Shown here: in pieces, positions 2,839-6,835 of the stretch | How positions within the stretch are numbered: the first letter of the stretch is position 1 | Layout: every line of letters begins with the position of its first letter | Source: Cladosporium halotolerans | Lineage: Eukaryota | DNA: 64,000 bases | Direction of reading: 5' to 3' | NCBI RefSeq assembly: GCF_011745625.1 | Contig: NW_027191458.1 | Span: forward strand, 496,001 to 560,000 | Translations under genes and position numbers: made by a program | Notes under the pieces: generated by a model | What the model was told of the DNA's origin: nothing | Databases searched by the model: none | Seen by the model: only the letters and a program-made list of their open reading frames with translations

Positions 2839-5005
2839 ATGGCTCCAGACTTGAACGCCGTCGCCGGCGGCGAGAGGTTCGACTACTCCCAGCCAGGCTC
2901 TACCGGTTACAACATCAGGAAGGATGCAACGTGGATGGATCCTCAGAACAGACGCTTGAGGGTGTTGAGCATCGGCGCGGGCGTCAGCGGCATCCTCATG
3001 GCGTACCAGATCCAGAAGATGTGCGAGAACGTCGAGCACGTGATTTACGAGAAGAACGAAGACATCGCCGGTAAGCAACCACGAAATATCTTTATATCGA
3101 GCGATGGCCGCTGAAGCTTTCCAGGTACTTGGTTGGAGAACAGATACCCAGGGTAGATGGGCTGCTTCCTGAGGGCGAGTAATCCTAAGCTGACGTTCCC
3201 AGTTGCGCGTGTGACATCCCCTCCCACGCCTACACCTATAACTTCGCATTGGTAAATGCTTTCCACAAGCTATAACCGTATCCAGCCAGCTGACTCACGA
3301 CACAGAACCCCGACTGGCCCCAGTTCTTCTCCAGAGCACCCGCCATTTTCGCCTATCTGGAGAAAATCGTGGAGACCTTCGACCTCCGCAAGTACATGAA
3401 CTTCCACTCTGAAGTCATCGGCTGCACGTGGAACGAGGAGAAAGGCGAATGGCTCGTCAAGATCCGCGAGCAGTCACCTGGGAAGGAGCCAAGGGAGTTC
3501 GAAGACCATTGCCATCTTCTACTACACGGCACTGGCATCCTGAACAACTACAAATGGCCTGACATCCCCGGCTTGAAAGACAAGTTTAGGGGCAAAGTGA
3601 TCCACACCGCGACCTGGCCGAAGGATTACCAAGAGGAGCAATGGGCCAACGACCGCGTCGCCATCATTGGTTCCGGCGCCTCGTCCATCCAGACCGTACC
3701 GACCATGCAGCCGCACACCAAGCATCTGGACGTTTTCGTCCGGACGGGCGTCTGGTTCGTCCAGATGGCGGACCATACCGGGTATAACAAGCCCTATTCT
3801 CAAGAGCAGCGTGACGCTTTCCGTAAGGACCCCAAAGCCCTCGTCGCAGAGGCAAAAAACATCGAGGATCAGATCAACGGCCTATGGGGCGCCTTCTTCG
3901 AAGGCTCGGAGGAGCAGAAGGGCGCGCAGGAGCTGTTCCGCGCACGAATGGCGGAGTGGATCAAAGACGAGCGGCTACTGAAGGGTTTCACGCCGAAGTT
4001 CGATGTTGGATGTCGCAGGATCACGCCTGGCGATCCGTATATGCTTGCTATCCAGGAGAAAAATGTGGATGTCCACTTCACTCCTGTCGTGAGGTGCACT
4101 GAAGATGGTGTCGTCGGTGAAGACGGGGTGGAGAGGAAGGTGGACACGATTGTTTGCGCGACAGGCTTTGACGTCTCGTACAAGCCAAGGTTCCCTATAG
4201 TCGGCAAGGATGGAGTCGACCTGGCGGACAAGTGGAAGGTTTGCCCGGAAGCGTATTTGGGTGTCTGCGTTCCCTCGATGCCCAACTTTGTCACCTTCAT
4301 CGGGCCTAGCTGGCCTGTCGAGAGGTAAGTAATCATCGACCAACTGAACTCCCAGCGTAATCGTGTGCTAATAGACTCGCAGTATGTCAGGAAAGCTAAT
4401 TTATCGACCATAGAGGGCAAGCTAACGTATCCCGCAGATGGCAGCGTAATGGGTCCCTTGCAAGCAGTCGCCGACTATACGATCCAATGGATCAAGAAGA
4501 TGCAAAACGAGAACCTGCGCAGCTTTGCGCCTAGGCAGGAAATCACTGATCAGTTCAACGAGCATGTCCAAGTGAGCAATAAGAGCCTGTCTCCTCGTTT
4601 GAGCGTACCAATTGACCGTTTTGTCAGGAATGGATCAAACACACCGTTTGGAAATCAGACTGCCGCAGCTGGTACAAGAACAATGAGACCGGCCGCGTCA
4701 ACGCCGTCTTCCCGGGCTCCAGCCTGCACTACATGAAGCTGCTGGGCGTGCCGCGCTACGAAGACTTCGAGATTAAGAGCTTCAGCAAGAACCCTTGGGA
4801 ATTTTTGGGATTAGGCTGGACTGTCGAGGGGAGGAAGGGCCCGGCTGAAGCGGACTGCAGCCCGTACCTAGCGTTGGGCAGTGTGGACCCGAAGTGGTAT
4901 GAGGCGTGCGGTGGAGATGTGAAGGTTCTGAAGGAGTTAGCTCAGCAGGAGAGGGAGAGAGAAAGGGAGGTGGAGGGAGGGAAATGGGTTGAGAGGAAAC
5001 TTTGA
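2839..5005 (+). CDS. Baeyer-Villiger / flavin-dependent monooxygenase (class B FMO, StcW/MoxY-like). Exons 2839-3070, 3125-3152, 3203-3251, 3306-4323, 4438-4571, 4628-5005
   Basis: GAGVSG Rossmann motif; [18 protein letters not shown] after splicing; BVMO fingerprint [12 protein letters not shown]; second Rossmann GSGASS; ATGF; WPVENGSVMGPL only after stwintron removal; C-terminal CRSWYK. Confidence 0.92.
4324..4437 (+). other. [D1,2] spliceosomal twin intron (stwintron): internal intron 4325-4382 nested between nt 1 and 2 of the external intron donor
   Basis: G|GTAAGT...GCTAAT...CGCAG|TATGT...GCTAAC...CGCAG. Removing 4325-4382 creates the donor GTATGT, and removing both introns restores the reading frame. 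Confidence 0.85.
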
Positions 5006-5350
5006 AGGGAAATCAAATCTTCTTCTGGCTTGGAGGATCTCTAGCGCTCCTCCATAGACGTACGATAAGTCGGTTTGTATTGTATTACCCGCATTGCTGT
5101 AGCTCCGAAACCACTGACTGCAGTCAAGGTGGCGCGCAATTATCACATGGTAGCGATCGCAGCCACCTCGAAAGACTCGGCGTCGGGCACACCTGGTGTG
5201 TATTCACTTCACTTCGCGCGGCAAGCTTTGACGTTTTGCGCTGGGCCGAATTTTGCTGCCTGAGAGTTTAAATCGCTATTGTGCTCTTCACCATCGAAGC
5301 TACCTCTTCCTACCGCACAACACTTATCAAACAACACCAACAACGGCACG

Positions 5351-6835
5351 ATGGCCAGCGAAAGCATCGAAGCCTCCGCTGCGGGACCCTCACAGACCTC
5401 GCGCAAGCGCATAGCCGACCATCAAGGCAATGACGTGCTCATCATTTGCCCACCGGGACTCAAGTCAACACACAAAGATGATGCTGGATTTGCACCCTTT
5501 CCAATTCAGATCTACATCCTCGACAGCGTGGCAGTCGATGCAAAGGACGTGGAAGCCAATGACATCCCCAAAAGGGTCGGCTCTTTGATCGAGCGCGTCA
5601 TTTCAACGCAACAAAGACCCGTCGAATGCCATCTTCAGCTCTACTTGAAGCCACAAAGATCTATCTTGACGTGCTTAGCACATACGAAATTTGAGACAGT
5701 CCACCGCAACCGTCATGGTATCTGGCCACTGATGGTGCCGCAACCTCCGGCCAGGCCGCTGATAAAGCAAGAGTTTCCGGGATACCATCGGTTCAACCAT
5801 CACAGCTTCTTCTTGGTCATCGACAGATGTGACTGGGAGAAGTCGTTTACGTTGGTCGATTTTGTATGGGAAGACTGGTGGAGCGGCGGCCGAGGGACCA
5901 AGCTGCTTGATGCCAAGCAATTCAATGACATACCAGAAGCACTCGAACAGAATGCACAAAGCAGTTCGAGAGACATCGAAAGGCGCGAACATAGTTCTCA
6001 AGCGAGCCACGCCCTCTCGGAGCAACTATGGTCAATAAACTTTGATCATATGTCTGGATATTTGCGGAAGTGTTACAAGAGCGATACTTCTCCTGGACTG
6101 CTACCAGCGACCCTTGATCATTTCAGATCAAACTTAAGGCTTGCGGAAAAGACGCCAATGAGTCCAAGGAATGAGCCCGTAAATACATGCATGTACACCG
6201 ACTGTGGTGGCATCAACGTCACGTCAGTATGGGCCCAACGGTATGGCTCTGATCGGCCCAAGCTCTCTGTCAGACTCTACCTCGCTGAAGATTGTCCGTT
6301 CTGGCCTGCCGAGGAGTATTACGACATTATCAACCACTTTGACAGATGCGAGACTCCATGGACTTTAGATATTTCTGAAGGGCGGTGGGCTCTTGAAGAA
6401 GCACACGGACACAACACTCAAGATTCATACAAACGCAGACCGACATCTCACCGGCGCCGGGGGCCTACAATGGCAATGATTTTGGCAAAGACTCTGCCCC
6501 AAGAAATGCCTCAAGAGCTCTTTTACCAAATCATGTCATACTTCGCAGTTCCTCTGGTGCCTGATTGGAGCCCATACGCTCCAAAAGTTGCACCGAGATT
6601 CCAAGATGTTTTCCTTTTCCTCAACGCTGCATATGTCACCCAACTTCCACACCAGCGGCCATTGGCCTATTCGGTGACTTCTCAGGACCTTCGGTTGCCG
6701 CTGACAGTAGCTGAGGGCCGAAGCGCAATGACGATCACCGTCTTGGACAAATATGGGAGCATTCAGCGCCAGATACAAGAACTTGTGAGAGGGGCTACTC
6801 GCGATCCTGCAGTACTTTCCTCCATTCTGGAGTAA
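5351..6835 (+). CDS. Hypothetical (probably lineage-specific) protein, about 494 aa
   Basis: Long uninterrupted ORF with first ATG at 5351. Weak F-box-like stretch LPQEMPQELFYQIMSY near the C-terminus. The 3' end could be spliced (GTAAGC at 6832). Confidence 0.55.
   Translation: MASESIEASAAGPSQTSRKRIADHQGNDVLIICPPGLKSTHKDDAGFAPFPIQIYILDSVAVDAKDVEANDIPKRVGSLIERVISTQQRPVECHLQLYLKPQRSILTCLAHTKFETVHRNRHGIWPLMVPQPPARPLIKQEFPGYHRFNHHSFFLVIDRCDWEKSFTLVDFVWEDWWSGGRGTKLLDAKQFNDIPEALEQNAQSSSRDIERREHSSQASHALSEQLWSINFDHMSGYLRKCYKSDTSPGLLPATLDHFRSNLRLAEKTPMSPRNEPVNTCMYTDCGGINVTSVWAQRYGSDRPKLSVRLYLAEDCPFWPAEEYYDIINHFDRCETPWTLDISEGRWALEEAHGHNTQDSYKRRPTSHRRRGPTMAMILAKTLPQEMPQELFYQIMSYFAVPLVPDWSPYAPKVAPRFQDVFLFLNAAYVTQLPHQRPLAYSVTSQDLRLPLTVAEGRSAMTITVLDKYGSIQRQIQELVRGATRDPAVLSSILE

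Follow-up and report, generated by a model that had tools for sequence, protein, structure and literature searches.

A candidate [D1,2] stwintron in a Baeyer–Villiger monooxygenase gene of a dothideomycete-like fungus

Positions 4324–4437 of the window, by which the whole 64-kb stretch of analysed DNA is meant, very probably constitute a spliceosomal twin intron, or stwintron, of the [D1,2] type, located in the gene for a type-I Baeyer–Villiger/flavin monooxygenase in a dothideomycete-like fungus. In transcripts from a close relative, not from this very DNA, exactly 114 nt are removed and 4323 is joined to 4438. In the first of two proposed steps, the spliceosome would excise a 58-nt internal intron (4325–4382), which has a donor GTAAGT preceded by AG, a branch GCTAAT and an acceptor CAG. 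In the second, G4324 would meet TATGT to form the donor GTATGT, upon which a 56-nt external intron, with its branch GCTAAC and a CAG ending at 4437, would be excised in turn. The outcome, seen in those transcripts, is the joining of A4323 to AT (4438–4439), which generates a conserved Asn codon and keeps the frame.

The monooxygenase gene and its nested intron

The host gene lies on the + strand, spans 2839–5005, and comprises six exons, laid out with their introns as follows.

2839..3070, +: exon 1, with the ATG at 2839; an RNA contig has a joint at its 3′ end (3069 to 3124, cut +1)
3071..3124, +: intron 1, 54 nt, GT..AG; joint in X2 and X5 contigs, with a shorter side of only 28 nt
3125..3152, +: exon 2, 28 nt; sequence and contig joints
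3153..3202, +: intron 2, 50 nt, GT..AG; sequence and contig joint, shorter side 28 nt
3203..3251, +: exon 3, 49 nt; sequence and contig joints
3252..3305, +: intron 3, 54 nt, GT..AG; sequence and contig joint
3306..4323, +: exon 4; open frame, the last base being the A of the Asn codon; RNA joint after 4323
4324..4324, +: first base of the putative stwintron, G1 of the external intron's split donor; sequence, also in relatives
4325..4382, +: putative internal intron, 58 nt; GTAAGT at 4325–4330, GCTAAT at 4367–4372, CAG at 4380–4382
4383..4437, +: rest of the putative external intron; TATGT at 4383–4387, GCTAAC at 4421–4426, CAG at 4435–4437; RNA joint before 4438
4438..4571, +: exon 5; its first bases, AT, complete the Asn codon; sequence, RNA joint, homologues
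4572..4627, +: intron 5, 56 nt, GT..AG; sequence and contig joint
4628..5005, +: exon 6; stop codon at 5003–5005

Exon 4 matches the Pfam family PF00743 (FMO-like; E 3.3e-11, above the curated cut-off) and has 219 longer homologues, the top identity of 80% being to Cryoendolithus antarcticus. The nearest named homologues of the monooxygenase belong to the Dothideomycetes, for example Cryoendolithus, Zymoseptoria, and Cercospora. Many homologues carry source names such as sterigmatocystin biosynthesis monooxygenase stcW, moxY, or cyclohexanone monooxygenase, which are annotation names, not assays. The fingerprint of Baeyer–Villiger monooxygenases (BVMOs) is F-x-G-x-x-x-H-x-x-x-W-P/D, and the exon 4 translation contains a 12-letter match to F-x-G-x-x-x-H-x-x-x-W-P. 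The gene product is predicted to be a type I Baeyer–Villiger/flavin-containing monooxygenase, stcW/moxY-like. Directly 3′ of the gene lies a 523-codon open frame (window 5264–6835, +). As a separate observation, the homologues P0060 (66% identity) and P0199 (64%) are filed under the tree genomes Carpinus fangiana and Quercus suber; the first of these is a fusion model of 1954 residues, and both look like fungal DNA inside plant assemblies.

Read base by base, the nested region presents in order the exon end GTC GAG A (4323), G4324, GTAAGT, GCTAAT, CAG, TATGTC (4383–4388), GCTAAC, and a final CAG (4435–4437), after which the sequence continues with ATGGCAGC. Upon re-reading of the sequence, the first-pass annotation, which had proposed the nested intron, turned out to be right base for base as to the end of exon 4, G4324, the 58-nt intron, and the motifs. 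A [D1,2] stwintron opens with a G that runs directly into a complete U2 donor (motif 1, G + GTNNGN), and G4324 followed by GTAAGT is exactly that. The internal branch element GCTAAT stands 7 nt before CAG in an intron of 58 nt, within the published ranges of DYTRAY 4–20 nt before HAG and a length of at least 42 nt. The external intron is composed of G4324 and 4383–4437, 56 nt in all, with its branch element GCTAAC located 8 nt before the CAG at 4435–4437. Its donor GTATGT exists once G4324 meets TATGT, and the sequence confirms the earlier statement that excision of 4325–4382 is what creates it. Both GTAAGT and GTATGT are within the published list of 24 donors. Viewed from the other end, the region contains two bona fide introns, 4325–4382 and 4382–4437, that overlap by one G. 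The alternative [A2,3] route, described earlier as closed, is indeed closed in its strict form because exon 5 starts with A.

A search with the published [D1,2] model A formula (PMC9024468), conducted on both strands of the 64-kb window, returned one match, starting at 4324, and no second stwintron copy; in its greedy form the match runs to 4444. Across 300 first-order Markov surrogates of the window, the mean expectation was 0.09 matches, with at least one match in 8%. As about 30% of raw model A matches were authentic in the published survey (PMC9024468), a formula match alone is weak evidence. The weight of this match lies in its position, exactly where the frame needs it.

Transcript joints and routes of splicing

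Parts of the gene are present in 24 runs, four of which (X1, X2, X5, and X19) were compared at a likeness of at least 90%, all in the form of contigs. X5 is recorded as a metatranscriptome; X2, which stems from a different study, is presumed to be RNA, a presumption supported by its five spliced joints. The mature junction that the first-pass annotation had expected, 4323^4438 with its apparent GG..AG borders, is present in contigs of both studies. It occurs in X2 record 13 (934 nt) and X5 record 19 (898 nt), skips 114 nt, contains 0 ambiguous letters, and leaves 134 nt on its shorter side. The same two records also lack intron 5 (4571 joined to 4628), and introns 1–3 are absent from other contigs of runs X2 and X5. 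Neither the 4325–4437 junction nor the form lacking only 4325–4382 occurs in the X2 and X5 contigs, but assembled contigs lose rare forms, and this absence carries no weight. Differences from the window number 22 in 934 positions for the X2 contig and 16 in 898 for the X5 contig (about 1.8–2.4% in exons), and this divergence of about 2% assigns them to another strain or a sibling species. X19 is a DNA contig identical to the window, in which all introns are kept and G4324 is present, while X1 is a mixture of relatives whose intron bins are covered, with no joint, and with no 4324 indel among the differences listed.

With 4324–4437 (114 nt) removed, 612 codons stay open, and the translation runs ...SWPVENGSVMGPL..., with Asn-Gly at the junction as in homologues; this is the normal BVMO continuation that had been foreseen upon removal of both introns. 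Equally accurate was the forecast that splicing 4325–4437 as one ordinary intron shifts the frame to a premature TAG: the outermost GT and AG used alone leave G4324 in the message and therefore cause a frame shift (+1), with the TAG located at codon 475. Removal of only 4325–4382 leads to a stop at codon 453. One more excision, which the first-pass annotation had not mentioned, is a single canonical GT..AG intron of 120 nt at 4325–4444, which is also in frame (...VESVMG...) and would give a protein without Asn-Gly. It has consensus signals, its end is that of the greedy formula match, and it could also arise via removal of 4382–4437 first and then of the remainder. Yet its joint is absent from X2 and X5, which both show 4323 joined to 4438, and it deletes two residues kept by 120 of 120 homologues among the matches listed. 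In the alignment of these homologues with the 114-nt-removal model, every one carries two ungapped residues at the junction, mostly in the context ..P[VI]ENGS.., and the Asn-Gly pair is restored by the junction 4323^4438 only. The conservation at the junction disfavors the 120-nt intron, which is highly improbable.

The mature junction alone fits removal in one step or in two, such that 4324–4437 could in principle be excised at once as one non-canonical GG..AG intron, bypassing any intermediate. GG is no U2 donor, however, AG|GTAAGT is the consensus, and U2-type splicing at AG|GTAAGT would cut one base 3′ of a start at G4324. Precisely such a consensus donor, GTAAGT preceded by AG, begins right after G4324, which argues against the one-step route. 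Further evidence on this route comes from the DNA of relatives.

The same site in relatives and the possible turnover of its introns

A metagenome contig scan recovered 33 loci, and the same nested layout is present in 10 of them (L001–L008, L013, and L029; 7 distinct sequences; protein identity 76–94%). The survey of orthologues that had been recommended thus shows the position of the nested intron to be shared by seven other distinct relatives. All 10 loci read GAR-A|G|GT.. at the site, and their exon 5 begins AY-GGN. The internal intron of the relatives measures 54–59 nt, ends in YAG, and is followed directly by T(A/G)NGT; their external intron measures 68–202 nt and bears its own branch element 7–11 nt before CAG. 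The eight stwintrons were compared by motif-anchored parsing, as MAFFT placed two subgroups wrongly within the internal intron. From lineage to lineage, the internal introns are no more than 0.59–0.76 identical, and the kept splice signals therefore stand out: the internal branch element, the acceptor, and T(A/G)NGT are in the same place in 8/8 distinct sequences (7/8 by the strict branch motif). In a control set of 33 other distinct putative introns from these loci, just 1 bears a branch element with HAG and T..G behind it. Position 5 of the internal donor is not G in two of the eight distinct sequences (GTAAAG in L006 and GTAACC in L007/L008), and the internal branch element of L029 is GCTAAA; all three variants fall outside the published motif sets. 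To judge from this sequence comparison, the internal splice signals are under selection.

Under the one-step route, the conserved internal branch, acceptor, and T(A/G)NGT would be superfluous; such motifs are found in only one of the control introns, and the rest of the intron has diverged. Moreover, experiments in Hypoxylon showed that [D1,2] stwintrons leave the transcript overwhelmingly in two consecutive reactions (PMC9024468). We infer from this precedent, from the selected internal signals, and from the donor sequences considered above that the internal intron is removed first and the newly formed external intron second; one-step removal is improbable.

A different challenge to the twin-intron reading stems from the fact that one extra base alone separates the layout from that of an ordinary intron, so that G4324 might be an artifact of assembly, or the gene a pseudogene with a shifted frame and a single ordinary intron. 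The contig that confirms the G, X19, may moreover be the window's own source. Against this, the same extra G is present in 10/10 related loci from independent metagenome assemblies, and intact-frame transcripts exist in X2 and X5. The G is also implied by open reading frame (ORF) calls that end ...VER and then stop at the stwintron (P0121, P0123, P0124, P0127, and P0128). Of these, P0121 is 98% identical and originates from a different assembly; its ...VER before the stop implies the same AGG-TAA and the same G. A sequencing error, named in the first-pass annotation as a potential pitfall, is thereby countered, and error or pseudogene together are very unlikely indeed. Two other ORF calls, P0122 and P0126, run on into the stwintron. 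Gene finders restricted to GT..AG and any ORF caller would truncate or misread this gene.

Elsewhere among the 33 loci, the site itself or its immediate vicinity is occupied differently. No intron is present at the site in L009–L011, L016–L018, L021/L022, L024, L025, L027, and L012/L015, the last of which instead carry a pair of introns located a few codons upstream. The intron is canonical and falls at P|V in L032, at E|N in L023 and L030, and at N|G in L014, L031, and L033. The junction motif scan gave no match in L012/L015, L017, L019, L020, L021/L022, L026, and L028; L019, L020, L026, and L028 end before the junction. Homologue introns thus occupy four positions in a span of about 9 nt (P|V, E|N, within the Asn codon, and N|G), a pattern suggestive of a hotspot where introns are gained and lost, with the stwintron as one outcome.

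Two candidate origins of the stwintron were considered and set aside. A canonical intron at exactly the same position was found in none of the DNA of the 33 loci, and no simple path was found from the introns at E|N (1 nt upstream) or N|G (2 nt downstream).

Several local peculiarities were noted in passing. L030 (150–650) has a GAG|GTAAGT donor followed by no recognizable exon 5 and then by a second weak match to residues 409–485, and may be a degenerate or rearranged copy. L002, L003, and L004 contain, around 3497–3572, an additional intervening segment of about 76 nt that lies between ..TF and IGPSWPV, seven codons 5′ of the stwintron, and is absent from the window and the other relatives. 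The two short introns of L012 and L015 (3560–3700) lie inside the Gly and Trp codons of GP-TW-P, and these loci have none at the Asn codon; if they are added to the introns at P|V, E|N, and N|G, at least five intron positions fall within about 30 nt.

Phylogenetic trees were built on the exon 4 region, a quick one with 73 rows and a careful one with 28. Outside the trees are L013 and L029, which carry the stwintron and are too short, and L030, L031, and L033, whose coverage is below 230 residues. All stwintron rows and all ORF proteins ending ...VER form one clade with the window (support 98 in the quick tree and 97/92 in the careful tree), and the sister of this clade is the Cryoendolithus protein. 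Introns 1–3 of the window (3071–3305) are absent in L001, L002–L004, L005, L006, L008, and L020. In relatives without them, the first 435–442 codons form one uninterrupted frame and the stwintron persists; L020 seems to contain a frameshift, and its sequence ends before the junction. Because the distant homologues L014, L018, and L019 share some of their positions, introns 1–3 look ancestral, and they look to have been lost together in one sub-clade.

Within the stwintron clade is nested P0122, known as an ORF-called protein only, which reads ...WPVESELT..., the read-through of the predicted L006 intermediate. This suggests, as a lead, that in the P0122 lineage the internal intron was precisely deleted from the DNA, leaving an ordinary phase-1 intron. 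Grouping the stwintron rows without P0122 is worse by 33.6 log-likelihood units (p-AU 0.033), a lenient figure, as the group was chosen after the first tree. The monooxygenase clade would thereby add a possible case of internal-intron loss. A broader reading, that the clade is a natural series of stwintron turnover with a single origin, retention, one internal-intron loss, and a hotspot outcome, is tentative and falls somewhat short of an even chance. On that reading, the stwintron would have persisted in all the lineages represented by DNA, including those without introns 1–3.

Comparison with described stwintrons

Stwintrons of the [D1,2] kind, although a rare arrangement, are already well described in other fungi. 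One Hypoxylon genome contains 117, and more than 1500 are reported across the Hypoxylaceae (PMC9024468); another 288, similar in sequence to one another, were reported in 14 Xylariales (PMC12403724). The suggestion of the first-pass annotation that a stwintron in this gene may be undescribed therefore stands for the gene, which was not found listed as a carrier in the texts consulted, and falls for the kind, which is described in hundreds. Within the accessible material, a term search of Table S1 of PMC9024468 found as the sole monooxygenase a phenol 2-monooxygenase of another family (pfam01494), with no entry for Baeyer or flavin. The words monooxygenase, Baeyer, and flavin are absent from the main texts of PMC9024468 and PMC12403724 as accessible, as is monooxygenase from the accessible text of PMC5639578. 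The stwintron field gains a transcript-supported, clade-conserved [D1,2] example with Dothideomycetes as the nearest named homologues, and the known working of stwintrons is unchanged by it.

The monooxygenase stwintron closely resembles those [D1,2] stwintrons that are described as "uniquely occurring" in Hypoxylon sp. CO27-5 and other Hypoxylaceae (PMC9024468). Like these, it has an internal U2 intron inserted between G1 and U2 of the external donor and has no sequence similarity to the repeated family. It also fits model A, and at 114 nt it equals the shortest length reported in the accessible part of that work. Its position is kept across related taxa, and splicing at the outermost sites produces a +1 frameshift, both as described for that set. 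Unlike those of the Hypoxylaceae, it resides in a different host gene and in a lineage whose nearest named homologues are Dothideomycetes. The same source emphasizes an underlying symmetry; here, by contrast, no marked RNA fold is predicted (minimum free energy −15.9 kcal/mol, z +1.74, matched or surpassed by 196 of 200 shuffles) and no stem joins the two ends of the stwintron RNA in the fold prediction. Given the lack of a notable fold, the monooxygenase stwintron resembles the "uniquely occurring" rather than the repeated "sister" stwintrons. The latter, known from the Hypoxylaceae and Xylariaceae (PMC12403724, PMC8469720), share its [D1,2] type. They differ from it in that the window holds no second copy and the monooxygenase stwintron no near-terminal stem, and in that its position recurs in orthologues and is not confined to one species.

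Two further systems bear on how such an element originates and disappears. The [D1,2] stwintron in the putative lipase gene lipS of Aspergillus nidulans (PMC5639578) is of the same type and is likewise conserved in a clade. Some lineages have lost stwintrons at the DNA level (PMC5639578), a loss paralleled here by the one protein-only relative, P0122, which suggests it. Unlike the monooxygenase, lipS, a different gene in a different lineage, has a canonical "host" intron at the same position in early-diverging classes (PMC5639578); the 33 loci here show no canonical intron at exactly the same position. The second system is the overlapping [D1,2]/[A2,3] stwintron of a DHA1 antiporter gene (PMC5587772). 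In the window and in all relatives, unlike in the DHA1 gene, the [A2,3] route is closed by an exon 5 that begins with A. The neighboring canonical positions E|N and N|G, moreover, are not those predicted by the one-base intron-shift model set out for that gene (PMC5587772). The monooxygenase site nonetheless has in common with that model that homologues carry canonical introns 1–2 nt away, and with the DHA1 stwintron itself that its two introns overlap by one G.
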